DNA of 64,000 nt from Gemmatimonadales bacterium (GTDB lineage: Bacteria; Gemmatimonadota; Gemmatimonadetes; Gemmatimonadales; GWC2-71-9). Below, piece after piece: positions 15,855 through 47,177 of the stretch; the first letter of the stretch is position 1; each line of letters begins with the position of its first letter. The stretch covers positions 544,001 to 608,000 of the forward strand of contig JBBCJC010000005.1 of NCBI GenBank assembly GCA_037189525.1, in the 5' to 3' direction. Below the pieces are notes generated by a model, which saw only the letters and a program-made list of their open reading frames with translations, was not told the origin of the DNA and made no database searches. The translations under genes were made by a program, and so were the position numbers.

Positions 15855-17759
15855 TCACTTCATCACCGGGAGCCGGATACCGGACGGGTATTCGGGGCCG
15901 CGATGCAGCGTCACCGTCGGACGACCGGTGACCGGCGGCCGCTCGGTGTTGTCGGCATCGGCGCCCATGATGGTGACCCGCAGCCGATGGCCCGCATTGA
16001 AAACCGTAGCTGTCGGATGCAGCGCGATCTGCAGCGTCGCCACCTGGTTCGGCACTAGCGGTTTCCGATCTGCCTTGTTGGCGCGATGCCAGGGCAGCCC
16101 CAGGAAGTTGTAAGGCGGTGTGGTGGTGTCGCGATAGGAGGCTCGCAGGATTCCTTCGGTGACGTAGCGGGAATACCCGGCACTGTCGACCTCGGTGAGC
16201 ACGGCGTAGAAGTCGCCGTCGGTCTGGTTGGAACTGACATGGAGCGTCACCACCGGATGCCCAACGATGGTCAGATCCGCAGCCAACGGCTCGGTCGTGT
16301 AGGTCAGCGCCTTGGCCTCGTTAGGCGCCAGGTCCGGATAGCGCATCGGCCCCTGCCCGACCGCGTTGTCCCAGCGGCTCGCAGTGCCGGTGGTGGTGGT
16401 CAGGTCGACCAGATATCTGTCGCTCCCGGCGGCCGAGGGCGCGGTGCCGAGCACACCGTCGTTGACCGACTCGATGCTACCGGAGCTACCCGCCCCGAAG
16501 AAATAATCGACGTTGCTGACCCCCTTGGCCGGCCATTCGTCAGCCGAACGCCACTCCCATTTGCCCGGATCGATCATCAGGGCGTAGTTGATCCGCGCAC
16601 CGGAATCGACGCCGTTCCGGATACCCTTGAGCCAGCGATCGAACCAGCGATGCTGCTCTGCCCCATAGACCCGGACGAATTCGACGTTGACGATGCTGTC
16701 GTGCGCCGCATGGGCCCAACCGCCCATACCGACTCGCTGCGGTCCCTTGTAGTTGGCAAACCAGAGCATCTCGTCGGTGGCAAAGATGTCGTACCAGCCT
16801 CCGAAATGGTACGCAGGTACCGAGGCCCGATTGATCGCGTCCAAGACACCGGCCGGGTCGTGGCGCGACCAGGCGAAGTCGGGCGTGTCGTAATCGCGGT
16901 TGACAGCCCGGCGATACTGCTCCACCACGTCCCAGTTCTTCTCGTGCATGGCAAGCGCTTCGCCGCGCAGCGCGCCGCTGGTGTCGGCATCGACCGGCGG
17001 CTCGGGAAAGACCTTGTCGAGGCTGTGCGTCAGGATGCCCCAGTGCTGCATCGTGTTCTCGCGATAGATGCCGCCCTCGTACACCAGGTTGTACATGTCG
17101 AACGCCGCCACGTTCGGGAAGATCGCTTTGAGGGCGGGATGCGCGGTGCTCGCGGCCATGTACTGCGTGATGCCCAGATAGGATCCCCCGAACATGCCGA
17201 GGTTGCCGTCGCTCCAGGGCTGCTTGACCATCCAGTCCATCACATCGTAGGCATCGCGCGTCTCGGTCGGCGAGAACAGTCCCTCGTAGCGGCCGAACGA
17301 CGCCCCGCCACCGCGGACCTGAACCGCCACGATCACGTAGCCGTGCCTGATCAGGCGTTGCAGCGTCGGATTGACATCCACCATCGATGGCGCGTTGCGG
17401 CGCGCCAGCGCTTCCTCGGTGGCGCGCGCGGCCGACCCGAGATTGCGAACGTCCCGGCTGGCGAGAAGTGCCGCCGCGTCGGGCGTGCCGCGATGGTAGC
17501 GTGAATGCGTCCACACCACCGGAAACTTCCCGTCGGCCGGCAGGCCGTTGACCGAGGGGCGAATCACGTCGACGGCCAGACGCGTCCCGTCGCGCACGGT
17601 AACGTACTCGGAAGTCCGGACCCATTCGGTGAACCGGGGCTCGTCGTACCCTTCGTACTGCCCGAAGCTGGAAATCCGGCTGCTGTCCTGATCGGCGCTC
17701 CGGGGGGCACAGGCGGCCAGCATCAGCACCGCCGCGGCGGCAAGACTGCGCTGTAGCAT
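15855..17759 (-). CDS. CocE/NonD family hydrolase (lipoprotein)
   Basis: LAAC lipobox; RDGTRLAVD, GGSYLG, PepX_C-like C-terminus. Confidence 0.9.
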   Translation of the reverse strand: MLQRSLAAAAVLMLAACAPRSADQDSSRISSFGQYEGYDEPRFTEWVRTSEYVTVRDGTRLAVDVIRPSVNGLPADGKFPVVWTHSRYHRGTPDAAALLASRDVRNLGSAARATEEALARRNAPSMVDVNPTLQRLIRHGYVIVAVQVRGGGASFGRYEGLFSPTETRDAYDVMDWMVKQPWSDGNLGMFGGSYLGITQYMAASTAHPALKAIFPNVAAFDMYNLVYEGGIYRENTMQHWGILTHSLDKVFPEPPVDADTSGALRGEALAMHEKNWDVVEQYRRAVNRDYDTPDFAWSRHDPAGVLDAINRASVPAYHFGGWYDIFATDEMLWFANYKGPQRVGMGGWAHAAHDSIVNVEFVRVYGAEQHRWFDRWLKGIRNGVDSGARINYALMIDPGKWEWRSADEWPAKGVSNVDYFFGAGSSGSIESVNDGVLGTAPSAAGSDRYLVDLTTTTGTASRWDNAVGQGPMRYPDLAPNEAKALTYTTEPLAADLTIVGHPVVTLHVSSNQTDGDFYAVLTEVDSAGYSRYVTEGILRASYRDTTTPPYNFLGLPWHRANKADRKPLVPNQVATLQIALHPTATVFNAGHRLRVTIMGADADNTERPPVTGRPTVTLHRGPEYPSGIRLPVMK

Positions 17760-27802: not shown

Positions 27803-29314
27803 TCAGCGCGGCACGACGGCAACCTCCCGCCGGCGAGTCGACTGGGCGTAGCTCAGCGCCGAGTCGAGCATGGCGTCGAGGGCGACGCGGTCGAAGAAGC
27901 GGCCGTTCAGGAACACGGCGTCGATCCGCTTCACATTGCTGATATCAGCCAACGGGTCGGCGCCGAGCAGGACCAGGCTGGCCCGCTTGCCAGGCTCGAC
28001 CGTGCCCAGCGTCGTCAGCCGCTGAGCAGCTTCGGCCGAGTTGCGGGTGGCGGCCTGGATGGCCTGCATGGGGGTGAGACCCGCCTGGACCAGCAGTTCC
28101 AGTTCGCGATGGAGGCTGAAGCCCGGCACCAGCGGCACCACGGGTACGTCGGTCCCGGTGATCAGCTTGACCCCGTTTCGGATCAGGGGCGGAATGGTGC
28201 TCAGGTGGCGGGTCAGCCGGGCGCGGCCCGCCTCGAGTTGCGCGGGCGTAGCCTGCGCACCTGTTGGAATCCCCTCATCCATCGTGAGTGCCGCGGCCGG
28301 GGCGTACTTGAGTTCCGGTGGATTGCGGAAGGCTGAGTCGTTGGCGCGGAAGACGGTCTCCATCACGACCAACGTCGGGTCGAACCAGACCGGCCGTTCC
28401 GCTGCGAAGCGACCGAAGGCGTCGGCGGTGGCCGAGTCGTACGCGGCGAGCGCGGAGTCGGCCACGGCGAGACGGAGCCCGAAGAGCGGCCCCAGGATCG
28501 GCAGAGCGCGGTGGCGATCGAAGAACCGCTGGCTCAGCTGGAGAGCCCAGTTGCTCAGCTCTTCGCCACGCGGGGTCATGGCGAGTTCGACCCGGGTATT
28601 GTGCTCGATGGTGCGCTGCCCTGCCTCGATGGCTTCACGAACCGAGACGCTCTCCGGCACATGTCCGACGACCGGGATACCGTGCCGTTTGGCGGCGGCC
28701 AGGATCGTGAAGTACGCGACGCGCGGCGTCAGGCTGTGGACCTTGATCGCATCGATTTTGACGCGGGCGAGGCTGTCGACCATGGCCACGGCATACGCGG
28801 TGTCGTCCACCGCTTCCCGCGCCTCGGCGTAGGGGGTGCCCTGGATGGCGCGCAGCAGGTACTGGGCATCCAGGGTCGGACCGGTGATCAGGAATTCGGG
28901 GCCGGTCAAGCGTCCTTCCCTCACCGACTCGCGGAGCCAGAGGGAAATGGCCAGGTCGCTGCTCATGTCGCGCACGCCGGTCACGCCGTTGGCGAGGAAG
29001 AGCGGAAAGGCGTACTGCTCGTAACCGTAGGCGTGGGAGTGCATGTCCCAGAGGCCGGGGATGAGGAACTTGCCGGTCCCGTCGATCACGATGGTGCTGT
29101 CGGTGGTTTCGAAACGCCGGGTCGGGCCGATCAGGAGGATCGAGTCGCCCTGGATGGCGACGGTCTGTTCGACGAGCGGAGCGGCGCCGGTACCGTCGAT
29201 GACGGTGACGTTCCGGATGACGTAATCGGCGTCGAGGGTCTCGGTAGGGGTGCACCCGGCGGCGGTGGCAGCCAGGCAGAGGAGGACGGCCGTTCGAAAC
29301 AACGGAAGACGCAT
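27803..29314 (-). CDS. Amidohydrolase family lipoprotein
   Basis: AAGC lipobox; IPGLWDMHSH, GTD, GTVEPGKRASLV. Confidence 0.9.
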   Translation of the reverse strand: MRLPLFRTAVLLCLAATAAGCTPTETLDADYVIRNVTVIDGTGAAPLVEQTVAIQGDSILLIGPTRRFETTDSTIVIDGTGKFLIPGLWDMHSHAYGYEQYAFPLFLANGVTGVRDMSSDLAISLWLRESVREGRLTGPEFLITGPTLDAQYLLRAIQGTPYAEAREAVDDTAYAVAMVDSLARVKIDAIKVHSLTPRVAYFTILAAAKRHGIPVVGHVPESVSVREAIEAGQRTIEHNTRVELAMTPRGEELSNWALQLSQRFFDRHRALPILGPLFGLRLAVADSALAAYDSATADAFGRFAAERPVWFDPTLVVMETVFRANDSAFRNPPELKYAPAAALTMDEGIPTGAQATPAQLEAGRARLTRHLSTIPPLIRNGVKLITGTDVPVVPLVPGFSLHRELELLVQAGLTPMQAIQAATRNSAEAAQRLTTLGTVEPGKRASLVLLGADPLADISNVKRIDAVFLNGRFFDRVALDAMLDSALSYAQSTRRREVAVVPR

Positions 29315-29450
29315 GACCGCTCTCGGTTCGGGGTATTGCGGATCCCGGCGGCAGTCGGCGCTCGCGCGGAGGCCGAAGGTCGAGAACACGCTGTGGAAAC
29401 TAAAATATAGGTAGGGTCTTCTCCGGGCTGGCCGGCTCGATCCCCAGTCA

Positions 29451-29951
29451 CGTCGGGCGCAACGGCTGTCACCCGGCTCGTAACGATGGTCAGGTGGCTG
29501 GAACGGGCTGTCACCTCGGATAGAACGACTGTCAGGTCACGGAAAACGGCGGTCAGGTGTCCCGACGCGGCGTTCGGGGACACGAAACGGCTGTCAGATG
29601 ACCGGAAACGGCTGTCACTCGTCCCGCAACGGCGGTCAGGTGGCTGGAACGCCCTGTCACCTCGGACAAAACGACTGTCAGGTCACGGAAAACGACGGTC
29701 AGGTGTCCCAATGCGGCGTTCGGGGACAGAAAACGGCTGTCAGATGACTGGAAACGACTGTCACCCGTCCCGCAATGACGGTCACTCGTCCCGAAACGGC
29801 TGTCACGGTCCTCGAACGGGCGGTCAGACGACGGAAAACGGCGGTCACAGCTTCCGAAACGGCGTCCAAGTACAGACCCGGACGGTCAGGGAGCCCGAAC
29901 GGGCTGTCAGAGGACTCGAACGGACGTTTCAGGTGCCCGCAACGGCGTTCG
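29451..29951. repeat. Tandem array of ~24 degenerate 21-bp units (N10 + AACGRCKGTCA) with a 146-bp higher-order duplication
   Basis: Units aligned by hand end at 29471, 29492, 29513, 29534, 29555 ... 29909; 29493-29638 vs 29639-29784 differ at 14 of 146 positions. Confidence 0.92.
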
Positions 29952-30055
29952 GGACGAGAATCGAACGGATCGGCTACTGATTCGGGCGGACCTCGCTTCC
30001 GAACAGGGCCCGGAGAGGCTATTCTTGGCGCCGGCAAGCAGAACACCGGATAGTA

Positions 30056-30129
30056 CGGGACGTAGCGCAGCCCGGTAGCGCACCTGAATGGGGTTCAGGG
30101 GGTCGCGGGTTCAAATCCCGCCGTCCCGA
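30056..30129 (+). tRNA. tRNA-Pro(GGG), CCA not encoded
   Basis: Full cloverleaf: CGGGACG/CGTCCCG acceptor, GCGC D-stem, CCTGA/TCAGG anticodon stem with loop ATGGGGT, GCGGG-TTCAAAT-CCCGC T-arm. Confidence 0.96.
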
Positions 30130-30145
30130 TTCCATCTAAGTACGA

Positions 30146-30174
30146 GCCCCGCTCGACCTTACGTCGGGCGGGGC
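30146..30174 (+). other. 12-bp GC-rich hairpin after the tRNA (terminator-like or att-associated)
   Basis: GCCCCGCTCGAC-CTTAC-GTCGGGCGGGGC. Confidence 0.7.
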
Positions 30175-30264
30175 GTTCGCTTTCCCTCAGAGCGCGTGGA
30201 GCGATCCCACCGAAAACTCCATCGCACCACCCCATAACTTCAACCGTTTACCACCGCCGTCCTG

Positions 30265-30510
30265 TTAGAGCTTCGGCAGGAAATACCGAATCGGCTTCTG
30301 GTACACCTTCGCAAAGCGCGCCAGATCAATCGGGTCTAACCGGCGCTCACCCAGCTCGCATTTGGTCACGTAGGACTGAGGCCGGCGCAGCGCCTTCGCC
30401 ACCTGAACTTGGGTCAGCCCACAGGCGATTCGGGCACGCCGGAGCCGTGTGAGCAGGAACTGATACTCCGGCGTATGTACGGCACCGCGCTTGGGCTTGG
30501 AGGGCTCCAT
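30265..30510 (-). CDS. XRE-family helix-turn-helix regulator (81 aa)
   Basis: LRRARIACGLTQVQVAKALRRPQSYVTKCELGERRLD; GGAGG RBS. Confidence 0.88.
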   Translation of the reverse strand: MEPSKPKRGAVHTPEYQFLLTRLRRARIACGLTQVQVAKALRRPQSYVTKCELGERRLDPIDLARFAKVYQKPIRYFLPKL

Positions 30511-30530
30511 AGCCTCCACGCTCTCTTGCC

Positions 30531-30556
30531 TTGTACAATAACCCAACATGGGATAT
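30531..30556. promoter_or_regulatory. Putative XRE operator overlapping -10-like elements
   Basis: Inverted repeat ATAACCCA-ACA-TGGGATAT (30538-30556) and palindrome TTGTACAA just upstream of the HTH gene. Confidence 0.5.
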
Positions 30557-30731
30557 CATAGGGCCGTTTCCCCTGTCCGCTGACGCTCGTGGAGGATCGT
30601 ATGGTTCGTCTCAGCGGTGCCCTACTGCTCGTTGTTCTGATGTCCGGCTGAGCCTAGCCTGTGAGGCCCTGCATCTCTGCTTCGGTCCCACTCTAAGGGA
30701 CGTACAATCATCATAAATCGCGGGCGTTCGC

Positions 30732-31199
30732 ATGGTACACCTACGAATCGCAATCCTTCTTGCATGCATCTCTGGCTGCGCCGATCCGGGGCCGGCGACC
30801 ACCGCACCTCCACCAGCACCTGTGCCCCCCCCAGCGCCATCACCACCCCCGGCACCACCACCCCCGCCTCCGGCAGCCAAGTGCGGTACCAGCCAGCTGT
30901 GCGGGCAGGGAGTATCGGTGACCAAGGAGACGGACCCCAGCAAGCGTCCGGAAGGAGTCACCGACTTCTGGACCATCACCATCGGCCTTTGGAACGATGG
31001 GCCATCCTGTGCTGGCTCAGTCGAAGGGCGCGCCTACGTGATCGTACCCACACATTCTCACACCTTTCGAAGCGGTCGAGATGGCCCGGAACCAGTACCG
31101 CTGGGTGCGAGCTCGGTGCGCGTGGGGACGACCGATAGCCTATTCACTACGATTGACTCCATCGAAGTCCGGAGCTGGACCGCGATCAGCTGTCCCTAG
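30732..31199 (+). CDS. Hypothetical lipoprotein with proline-rich stalk
   Basis: ISGC lipobox, PPPAP low-complexity linker, four Cys in C-terminal domain. Confidence 0.65.
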   Translation: MVHLRIAILLACISGCADPGPATTAPPPAPVPPPAPSPPPAPPPPPPAAKCGTSQLCGQGVSVTKETDPSKRPEGVTDFWTITIGLWNDGPSCAGSVEGRAYVIVPTHSHTFRSGRDGPEPVPLGASSVRVGTTDSLFTTIDSIEVRSWTAISCP

Positions 31200-31226
31200 C
31201 TTGCTGTATCACCCTAAGGGGAATTA

Positions 31227-31265
31227 GGTCCAGGGGGTCGCGGGGTTCAAATTCCACCGTCCCAA
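31227..31265 (+). pseudogene. Degenerate 3' half of tRNA-Pro (attR-like)
   Basis: GGTCCAGGGGGTCGCGGGGTTCAAATTCCACCGTCCCAA vs GGTTCAGGGGGTCGCGGG-TTCAAATCCCGCCGTCCCGA. Confidence 0.8.
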
Positions 31266-31269
31266 CTTG

Positions 31270-31297
31270 AAAGTGCGGACCATCACCCGCGCTTTTT
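31270..31297 (+). terminator. Intrinsic terminator following the tRNA fragment
   Basis: AAAGTGCGG-N8-CCGCGCTTT stem running into TTTTT. Confidence 0.6.
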
Positions 31298-31373
31298 CGT
31301 GTCGTCGCCGAGCTTTGGTCGCCGCAGCTCACCTCCAGCTCGTTGCTTACCAGTCAAATCACGCGGTCTCAAC

Positions 31374-31424
31374 TCAATCTGAATACAAGCCCCGCTCGAC
31401 CTTGCGTCAGGCGGAGCTTTCGCT
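31374..31424 (+). repeat. Second, diverged copy of the post-tRNA trailer/hairpin (30131-30181)
   Basis: TCAATCTGAATACAAGCCCCGCTCGACCTTGCGTCAGGCGGAGCTTTCGCT vs TCCATCTAAGTACGAGCCCCGCTCGACCTTACGTCGGGCGGGGCGTTCGCT. Confidence 0.8.
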
Positions 31425-45528: not shown

Positions 45529-47177
45529 CCTGGGCCTTGCCACACCTCCTCATCGTCCCGGTCATCCTGCCGCTGCTCTCGGCGGTGATCATGCTCCTGA
45601 TCGGGTCCGAGCGCGGGCGATCGAAATCGATCGTCAACGTCCTGGCGACGCTGGCAGGCCTGCTCGTTGCGCTGGAAATTCTCCGACGGGTCGACGGAAG
45701 CGGCGGCTCCGGTGTCATCGGCGTCTACCTCGCCGCCAACTGGGAAGCTCCCTTCGGCATCGTGCTCGTAGCAGACCGCCTCGCCGCCCTGATGCTGGTG
45801 CTGACCGGCGTCGTCAGCCTGGGCGCAGCGCTGTACTCGATGGCCGGCTGGGGCCGCGCGGGCGTCTACTTCCACCCGCTGTTCCAGATCCAGTTGATGG
45901 GATTGAACGGGGCGTTCCTGACCGGCGACCTCTTCAATCTCTTCGTCTTCTTCGAAGTGGCGCTGGCCGCTTCCTACGGACTGCAGCTGCACGGCTCGGG
46001 ACCGACCCGAGTGCGGTCGGGGTTGCATTACCTCGCAATCAACCTGCTGGCGTCGTCGCTCTTCCTGGTTGGCCTCGCCATGATTTACGGCGTGATGGGA
46101 ACGCTGTCGATGGCCGACGTGGCCGCGAAGCTCCCGCACGTGGTCGAGGCCGATCGCGGCCTGCTGCATGCGGGCGTGGCCATTCTCGCGGTCGCGTTCC
46201 TCACCAAGGCCGCGATGTGGCCGCTCAATTCCTGGCTCGTTCCGGCGTATCTGTCGGCGAGTGCCCCGGTCGCCGCGCTCTTTGCGCTGATGACCAAGCT
46301 GGGCATCTACACGCTGCTGCGTCTCTGGACCCTGCTCTTTTCCGCCGATGCCGGCCCGTCGGCGCATTTCGGGGGGCCGCTCTTTCTCTACGGCGGTCTC
46401 GCAACCATCGGGTTCGGCGTCCTGGGGCTCATGGCGACACTGAAGCTCGGACGGATTGCGGGCTTCTCGATCATCGTGTCCTCGGGCACCCTGCTAGCCG
46501 CGCTCGGATTCGGCGCGGTGTCCGTCACGTCCGCTGCGCTGTACTATCTCCTGAGTTCTACTCTCGCAGCGAGCGCGCTGTTCCTCCTCGTCGAGCTGGT
46601 CGAACGCACCCGGAACGGCGAACCCGAACCGCTGCGCGAGGTCGATCTGGAGCCCGGCGAGGACACCAACCTCGACGACGACGAAGCCCCGCTCGTCGGT
46701 CGCGCCATCCCGGTCTCGCTGGCGCTGCTCGGCGTGGCCTTCATTGCCTGCGCCCTGCTGGTGGCGGGGCTGCCGCCGCTCTCGGGATTCATCGCGAAGT
46801 TTTCGATCATGGCCGCCATCGTGAGCCCCCCGGGCTACGGCGCACCGAGCGTACCCACGTCGATTGCGTGGGGGCTATTCGGCTTGCTGCTCCTTTCGGG
46901 ACTGGTGGCGACGATCGGGATGTCGAGAGCCGGAATTCGGCACTTCTGGACCGAGGCCGATCAACCGCCGCAGATCAAGGTCGCCGAGGCCGTACCGGTT
47001 CTCGCGCTCATCATCGTATGCGTGTGGCTCACGGCGCAGGCTGAACAAGTCATGCGCTACACCCATGCCACCGCCCGATCGCTGCATGCACCGACGGCCT
47101 ACATCGATGCGGTGCTGTCGACCCGACCGATCCCCGGGCCCACGCGACCCAATATCGACGGGGGAGGCGCGCCGTGA
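45525..47177 (+). CDS. mrpD: Antiporter subunit D
   Basis: GAFLTGDLFNLFVFFE, GLPPLSGFIAK. Confidence 0.95.
   Translation: MTWALPHLLIVPVILPLLSAVIMLLIGSERGRSKSIVNVLATLAGLLVALEILRRVDGSGGSGVIGVYLAANWEAPFGIVLVADRLAALMLVLTGVVSLGAALYSMAGWGRAGVYFHPLFQIQLMGLNGAFLTGDLFNLFVFFEVALAASYGLQLHGSGPTRVRSGLHYLAINLLASSLFLVGLAMIYGVMGTLSMADVAAKLPHVVEADRGLLHAGVAILAVAFLTKAAMWPLNSWLVPAYLSASAPVAALFALMTKLGIYTLLRLWTLLFSADAGPSAHFGGPLFLYGGLATIGFGVLGLMATLKLGRIAGFSIIVSSGTLLAALGFGAVSVTSAALYYLLSSTLAASALFLLVELVERTRNGEPEPLREVDLEPGEDTNLDDDEAPLVGRAIPVSLALLGVAFIACALLVAGLPPLSGFIAKFSIMAAIVSPPGYGAPSVPTSIAWGLFGLLLLSGLVATIGMSRAGIRHFWTEADQPPQIKVAEAVPVLALIIVCVWLTAQAEQVMRYTHATARSLHAPTAYIDAVLSTRPIPGPTRPNIDGGGAP

Follow-up and report, generated by a model that had tools for sequence, protein, structure and literature searches.

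We found that the degenerate tandem array of 21-bp units at positions 29451–29951 of the window, the 64,000-nucleotide stretch of a Gemmatimonadales genome analyzed here, is with good confidence an orphan, or solo, member of a class of gene-linked arrays. In this class, 21-bp arrays normally lie 5' of genes encoding an uncharacterized superfamily of helical-bundle proteins, in which we distinguish family A (helical plus FN3) and family B (all-helical). The same genome holds three family-B genes, each with its own upstream array, and one of these arrays is the closest relative of the window copy.

Parsed in phase, the window array, to which we assign no strand, consists of 24 units with the plus-strand consensus ggtgnCncgAAaCGgCgGTCA, and the spacing between units is 21 bp in 20 of 23 cases and 20 bp in the remaining three. 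A previous sequence-only reading had counted about 24 mostly 21-bp units, which agrees with our parse, and the four 20-bp units and one of 22 bp that it gave result from an alternative register near unit 23. The core it proposed, AACGRCKGTCA, is exact in 12 of the 24 units. When a profile of this core was scanned over the 4.65-Mb genome, as had been suggested, the window array alone stood out, with a chain score of 97 against 12 for the runner-up place, and its period-21 statistic of 0.522 (background mean 0.343) was equaled or exceeded in none of 2000 random 1-kb windows. The array itself had thus been described correctly, but a higher-order repeat within it had been overlooked: a 146-bp block of seven units, one of them of 20 bp, at 29482–29627 (+) recurs at 29628–29773 (+), also 146 bp long, with 132 of 146 positions identical. 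The array contains three 1-nt slips, and given that both 146-bp copies share one 1-nt slip, this slip is older than the duplication.

The approximately 10 nt per unit that had been regarded as variable turned out not to be independent of one another, with a mean pairwise identity of 4.09 of 10 positions compared to 2.79 after shuffling (268 pairs; as high in 0 of 2000 shuffles). Core identities at lags of one, two, and three units were 7.74, 7.59, and 8.0, and the only peak in periodicity between units was at lag 7, with no two-unit alternation. Given that the 10-nt parts are mutually related and no such alternation is present, they represent diverged copies of one 21-mer and not spacers. The near-dyad character ascribed to the core was recovered with 4-bp arms (P = 0.03) but not with 5- or 6-bp arms, which were not significant, and dyad symmetry of the whole unit was not either (p = 0.57); in essence, the units repeat directly and lack the palindrome of a dimer site.

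Contigs of a related strain, obtained from two runs of another study, span the window array at ∼97% identity with zero indels inside it, and 301 bp of the array are present in the data of a third study. The array is therefore not an assembly artifact. In this comparison, run X6 had no coverage of the array, those joints of X4 at which some of the region is bypassed were left out, and runs sharing few words with the stretch were excluded, including the sole RNA run (at most 5% of the stretch's words). At least 14 substitutions separate the strains within the 501 bp. Of the 14 differences listed, one falls in the seven most conserved columns (P = 0.027), and six fall in the 11-nt core of the sequence-only reading, where 7.3 were expected and no depletion is therefore apparent. 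As a test of column conservation this is weak, given that gene conversion would produce the same pattern.

The window array is lineage-restricted. A BLAST search with the array and its flanks in 40 relatives returned practically nothing but tRNAs, the array alone gave five matches of 22–34 nt in 400 genomes of the order, none of which extended, and a three-unit pattern gave three matches in 400 genomes of the family, namely one 7-bp repeat and two different 21-bp arrays. When the tRNA-Pro loci of 19 relatives were screened, no 21-bp array was seen among the loci listed, to which L011 does not belong. The intergenic spot 5' of tRNA-Pro is a variable insertion hot spot among relatives. Searches of viral sequences yielded 23 matches, mostly homogeneous repeats and none resembling the window array, and the whole array had no phage or plasmid match. 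Elsewhere in the same family, further 21-bp arrays were observed at positions 1433–1665 of L092 (G426:C1) and 1–170 of L093 (G498:C27), with no obvious partner gene in the DNA covered; an assembly gap borders one of the two, and the other lies at the end of its contig.

As the sequence-only reading had placed it, the array lies between a divergent amidohydrolase gene (27803–29314, minus strand; PF01979) and tRNA-Pro(GGG) (30056–30129, plus strand), and ends 104 bp before the latter, close to the ∼100 bp estimated. It would be situated upstream of two divergent promoters, judging from -10-like boxes recognized by eye: a putative box at 29404–29412 (−), between the array and the amidohydrolase gene that it faces, which a consensus scan missed, and another at 30018–30025 (+), downstream of the array and before the tRNA. 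A GCTA-N3-T text similarly precedes tRNA-Pro in some relatives. The 14 amidohydrolase homologue loci in the genus had no clear upstream array (highest period-21 value 0.406). Upstream of tRNA-Pro(GGG) in two relatives, L005 (G023:C11) and L016 (G038:C66), parts of the 5' half of the tRNA are copied in tandem, and L005 additionally has 14-bp repeats there, with the second block inverted.

A small island follows tRNA-Pro(GGG) (30086–31424), comprising an XRE/HTH gene (30265–30510, −) and then an ORF for a Pro-rich lipoprotein-like product (30732–31199; no Pfam match). It also includes the 3' half of the tRNA in degenerate, att-like form (31221–31263, +; 86% over 43 nt) and, in another degenerate copy, the tRNA 3' end with the downstream hairpin (31354–31424, +; 82% over 71 nt). 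An integrase was absent among the island ORFs scanned, and nothing tested connects the XRE gene with the window array. The XRE region is identical, with zero differences, to a 269-nt contig of another study. No Rep, Par, or Cas domain was detected by Pfam in 12 neighboring ORFs and the ORF over the window array. Two ARAGORN calls elsewhere in the window, a 97-nt tRNA-Thr(GGT) at 46609–46705 (−) and a 69-nt tRNA-Cys at 15999–16067, are below the Rfam threshold and may be false.

The gene-linked class came to light through a two-unit core pattern, which occurred at 41 loci in GTDB genomes. Ten of these were long degenerate 21-bp arrays, distributed over five genomes, and two of the 10 lay directly 5' of a ∼220-aa gene without a Pfam family, one of them belonging to family A and the other to family B. 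Such genes were deliberately sought next to the arrays, since similar arrays occur beside genes of this kind. Given that the searches used the window core itself, the presence of the same core in other phyla was not taken as conservation.

Family A has a predicted fold of three helices and an FN3 domain (pLDDT 96.5), for which a fold search with the whole protein gave a best Z of 11.8 (rmsd 2.2, 93 aligned). It comprises 5,269 clusters at 50% identity, and 29 matches were found in one 2.2-Mb Dysgonamonadaceae genome (G730). Among the Dysgonamonadaceae loci with enough flank, out of 28 fetched and with two loci representing the same gene, a strong 21-bp array was present upstream in 20 of 26 and downstream in none of 25, mostly with a different unit per copy. 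At the G730 loci L140, L142, and L144–L169, most genes have a palindromic 21-bp array ahead of them, its unit differing between copies. Across the arrays compared, 17 of 21 family-A arrays were palindromic, compared to 0 of 22 family-B and solo arrays; two of the family-A spans included neighboring repeats. This difference indicates that there may be two mechanisms. Many family-A arrays end within ∼60 bp of the start codon, and given that they abut start codons and leave little room for a promoter, a layout in which the array lies upstream of the promoter may not apply throughout the class. For family-A arrays, an upstream Bacteroidota -7 promoter was considered and rejected, with 8 sense versus 8 antisense occurrences in 20 arrays. 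Family A had zero matches in the genome of the window, and its only match in 300 genomes of the phylum was L139 (G281:C93; gene at 1255–1860 on the minus strand, array upstream at ∼2220–2620). By profile, the relation between families A and B is weak (5.5 and 26.8%).

The three family-B genes of the genome, at C1:493355–494065 (−), C5:1106533–1107228 (−), and C11:3729–4388 (+), were found with a 14-sequence profile after narrower profiles had missed them. They encode all-helical proteins of ∼220–235 aa with no Pfam family, homologous over their full length to Ignavibacteria and Bacteroidota proteins (HHalign 97.6%), and several of the genes in these groups have arrays and others do not. Upstream of each of the three genes is a phased, very degenerate 21-bp array (B1, B2, and B3; period-21 values 0.451, 0.480, and 0.492, matched by no more than 3 of 2000 random windows). 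The intact loci, L184, L185, and L186 (G000 C1:493355–494795, C5:1106533–1107943, and C11:3260–4388), comprise array, sigma54-type motif, and gene. Family B occurs in 19 of 21 genomes of the genus, often in multiple copies, and in 43 of 96 genomes of the family, a count that includes G101, whose locus was excluded from all later counts. Among the best-scoring 53 loci of relatives, those with full-length genes and enough flank had a 21-bp signal above the 99th percentile of background upstream in 28 of 37 cases and downstream in 2 of 42.

A fold search with family B retrieved generic bundle matches only (best Z 9.6) and no clear structural match, and the proteins had no HTH or other Pfam domain. 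A homodimer prediction for one member scored 0.00, which is evidence neither way. The nearest named ESM Atlas cluster to one family-B protein was DUF6261 (PF19775; 0.87), which we treat as a lead only, and PF19775 had no match in the genome or in 46 family-B members. At L111, the gene next to the array is family-B-like by eye and had no profile match. Two further period-21 stretches of the genome, at C3:450310–450904 and C9:26270–26505, were rejected as arrays and read as coding heptads, i.e., 7-residue repeats. The C3 heptads, located in the linker of a protein that is TPR-like by eye, were the best non-self match when profiles of the B2 and B3 arrays were used, a match that could be due to composition or to an array captured into a gene.

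The kinship of the window array to this class is reciprocal. With a profile of its 24 units, the best non-self match among 9,318 bins of the genome was the B1 array (C1:494463), which scored 9.2 against a mean of -95 (sd 11) and a next-best score of -42.6. Conversely, the B1-array profile had the window array as its best non-self match (23.0; mean -17.9, sd 7.6). The minus strand of the window array corresponds to the sense strand of the B1 array, and when the two are set in register a common pattern can be seen. With the arrays of B2 and B3 the window array has a weak relation only, at ranks 78 and 112. The sequence-only reading had no access to this kinship with gene-linked arrays elsewhere in the genome. 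A tblastn search with 46 family-B proteins revealed no family-B remnant in the window; given this and the kinship to the B1 array, the window array is a solo relative of a gene-linked array. No family-A or family-B gene lies directly downstream of it, and it was therefore counted as a solo copy, not as an intact locus. Solo arrays were also found in Ignavibacteriales, Mangrovibacterium, and Thermoanaerobaculia genomes, at unrelated loci. The solo arrays L052 and L055 (G731) and L067, L071, L081, and L089 (G732) share units within each genome, some with a common flank, which suggests that solo arrays spread within genomes, and those of G731 also share units with the gene-linked array L053.

Family-B genes are additionally associated with a sigma54-type promoter motif, TGGCA-N7-YGC, for which the consensus is given as TGGCACG-N4-TTGC(T/A) (PMC9765219). 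Within 320 nt 5' of family-B genes, the motif was present in sense orientation in 24 of 44 cases, compared to 0 of 44 in antisense and 1 of 46 downstream, and it was mostly located ∼130 nt ahead of the start codon. Given that the motif scoring profile was trained on the same sites, only these sense, antisense, and downstream counts are independent. The array was centered upstream of the motif in all 16 loci with both, and in one orthologous family-B trio the motif and the ribosome-binding region were conserved and the array had diverged. The genome encodes rpoN and has ∼14 strong activator-domain matches; among its three family-B loci, the motif is strong in B3, weak but in the usual place in B2, and reduced to the first half in B1. 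A common register of arrays with the sigma54-type motif was not significant (P = 0.054, or 0.10 when the nearest 63 nt were disregarded), and around the window array the motif was absent, with best scores of 3.8 and -2.0 on the two strands and a background 95th percentile of 5.1. A GGCACG..CGTGCC-type hairpin was observed to recur between promoter motif and ribosome-binding site in several family-B leaders, among them L224, L228, L229, and L232.

We lean towards interpreting the window array as an orphaned, putative platform for phased binding or bending at the DNA level, belonging to the gene-linked class. The arrays would act as double-stranded DNA, in which one site per two helical turns would place all sites on one face, and could form a multi-site platform where a sigma54 promoter would have its enhancer, at which proteins bind cooperatively or the DNA is bent. 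Since each paralogue has its own unit, the binder would either be specific to its locus, as the gene product or a dedicated activator might be, or read spacing and shape, not sequence. The window copy would have lost its promoter and gene, or moved without them, and subsequently grown by slippage, including the 146-bp duplication; upstream of the two divergent promoters, it may now serve as a decoy or as a binding site cut off from its gene, or be no more than a relic. The phased lattice for a dimeric protein proposed by the sequence-only reading survives in part: the fixed period, the free unit, and the kin upstream of a promoter motif appear to fit such a lattice, but a direct repeat is not the site expected of a dimer palindrome. 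Several observations sit poorly with a lattice. Besides the lack of a significant register with the promoter motif, the absence of that motif and of a family-B remnant at the window copy, its restriction to one lineage, and the family-A arrays that abut start codons, the three 1-nt slips in the window copy count against a working lattice, which should resist slips. Additionally, calculated pI values were 4.8–5.4 for 11 of 14 Ignavibacteria and Mangrovibacterium family-B members, and the acidic character predicted for most members in these groups would be a poor fit to direct DNA binding; the family-B proteins here were basic (median 9.7).

The main rival to the lattice reading is neutral decay, in which the window array would be a functionless, drifting minisatellite of gene-linked-array origin, and the arrays in general by-products of slippage and duplication with a preference for 21 nt. 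We consider this less probable, but it draws on much of the evidence above: the restriction of the array to one lineage, the recent 146-bp duplication that copied a slip, the strain substitutions, the insertion hot spot 5' of tRNA-Pro, and the recurrence of solo arrays at unrelated loci elsewhere. Moreover, the core is not enriched in the genome, with 11 copies outside the window array compared to 5–14 for controls. However, neutral slippage leaves unexplained why a fixed period with unrelated units is always found 5' of one gene superfamily, and the B2 and B3 arrays have kept their register, with 0–1 slips, even though consensus identity is only ∼60%. Purely neutral drift is also opposed by the strain comparison, with zero indels inside the window array and a weak shortage of changes at its conserved columns.

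A role at the RNA level is improbable. Under this alternative, one half of the sequence-only inference, a transcript of the array would be processed into short repeat/spacer RNAs for a trans-encoded effector, as in CRISPR or TIGR systems, or into small RNAs. It draws on the alternation of constant and variable parts, on 12 CUGA tetramers on the minus strand of the window array, on the palindromic family-A arrays near their genes, and on the reported transcription of 52-nt repeats in Bacillus (PMC8625621). The evidence from the window array itself points the other way: its supposed spacers are related copies, the two-repeat alternation is missing, RNA folding of neither strand beats shuffles (z = +0.61 and +1.38), no box C was found in it, and across the stretch Rfam matched the tRNA alone and nothing over the array. 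PF01798 (Nop) had zero matches in the 98%-complete genome, although divergent Tas proteins could escape this model, and Cas1 was found on contig C13 only, i.e., on another contig. Furthermore, the related arrays in the genome lie upstream of their promoter motif, and phage or plasmid matches to the whole array are lacking.

Even less plausible is a relic or leader ORF for a heptad coiled coil, with the minus strand, taken in unit register, giving [LV]T[AV]Vxxx. Read this way, that strand is stop-free in 23 of 24 units and true coding heptad genes can give the same core (L116, L138), but this reading is largely refuted by frameshifts and stops: the three slips break the frame, each of the three minus frames has 7–8 stops over the array, and among all six frames the single one without stops has no consistent heptad. 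The third codon positions of the heptad frame are also among the most conserved columns, and Mangrovibacterium arrays with the same core carry stops in that frame. Across 30 gene-linked arrays, open frames were as frequent in antisense (17) as in sense (18) and encoded unrelated peptides, and a leader peptide for these arrays was rejected on the same counts. Equally hard to sustain is an origin as an iteron or centromere-like remnant of a mobile element that had inserted at tRNA-Pro, with the XRE protein as a potential binder. The two-turn period, similar to iteron spacing, and the att-like tRNA 3'-end copies as traces of integration next door would speak for it, but the array lies 5' of the tRNA and beyond the att-bounded island, the 12 neighboring ORFs scanned lack Rep and Par domains, a plasmid match is likewise missing, and the closest kin of the array is a family-B array.

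Plasmid iterons and parC/parS-type centromeres are, like the present arrays, helically phased direct repeats that precede the gene for a potential binder. Unlike these, the gene-linked arrays lie on the chromosome in multiple copies, and the unit changes from paralogue to paralogue; their partner has no Rep, HTH, or RHH match, no ATPase or filament gene was seen, and the window copy has no adjacent partner. Closer to the layout of family B are sigma54 enhancer (UAS) clusters such as the Nla28 sites of Myxococcus xanthus, where imperfect direct repeats likewise precede a promoter of the TGGCACG-N4-TTGC type (PMC9765219). However, such clusters have 3–5 short sites at irregular spacing, in contrast to 10–45 units at a strict 21 bp here, and the window copy differs from them in lacking the sigma54 motif. 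TIGR arrays share with the present arrays conserved blocks of 8–12 nt, variable blocks of 9–12 nt, and a small gene adjoining intact loci (PMC12045711). They are nonetheless described with two alternating repeats (edge and loop) and with 36-nt guide RNAs as processing products, whereas the window array has one repeat type, related spacers, and no Pfam Nop match, and the partner proteins of the present arrays are helical bundles or helical plus FN3, unlike the Nop-domain Tas of TIGR. CRISPR arrays have repeats of 25–36 nt and spacers of similar size (PMC12045711), compared to an 11-nt degenerate core and 10-nt related parts here, and no adjacency to cas genes was seen, with Cas1 confined to C13 and Cas domains absent from the neighbors scanned.

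The window array instead belongs to a known but unexplained class of repeats, and an RNA-guide reading is unlikely. Constant-size tandem repeats of 20–21 nt in bacteria have been described as without obvious function, with a protein polymerizing on DNA or small RNAs suggested (Subirana and Messeguer, PMC8161180). Like the window array, they have a 20–21-nt unit of variable sequence with a short conserved motif, and they are species-specific and generally non-coding; all 23 spacings of the window array are 20 or 21 bp, and it likewise has a conserved motif, is species-specific, and is not protein-coding. It differs from the repeats of that study in being more degenerate, single-copy, and with identifiable gene-linked kin. 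The portion of PMC8161180 covered connects them with neither sigma54 promoters nor any gene family, and its repeat tables could bear on such linkage; among the titles and abstract openings of the open-access literature, the scope of our search, which left subscription papers aside, no paper tied such arrays to a helical family or to sigma54 promoters.

Repeats that are enigmatic in print (PMC8161180) thus now have a link to one protein superfamily and, within this lineage, to one promoter type as well. A broader extension is possible but doubtful: each helical-bundle paralogue may be paired with its own 21-bp lattice for a polymerizing protein or factor, under sigma54 control here, with solo arrays serving as docking sites in trans (decoys or chromosome-organizing anchors), and this might explain much of the 20–21-nt class. 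Just as tentatively, the putative paired system could be widespread, with thousands of clusters and up to ∼29 copies per genome. If the lattice reading fails, the window copy is a decaying minisatellite, of note only as a pointer to the class. The three intact loci and the related solo copy within one genome provide cognate and non-cognate pairs together with a natural gene-less control, and therefore make the question of function testable by binding and phase-shift reporter assays. The interest of the window array lies in the gene-linked system behind it and in this ready test set; if each protein does read its own lattice, DNA would here be recognized in a novel way, through a fold without a known DNA-binding domain.
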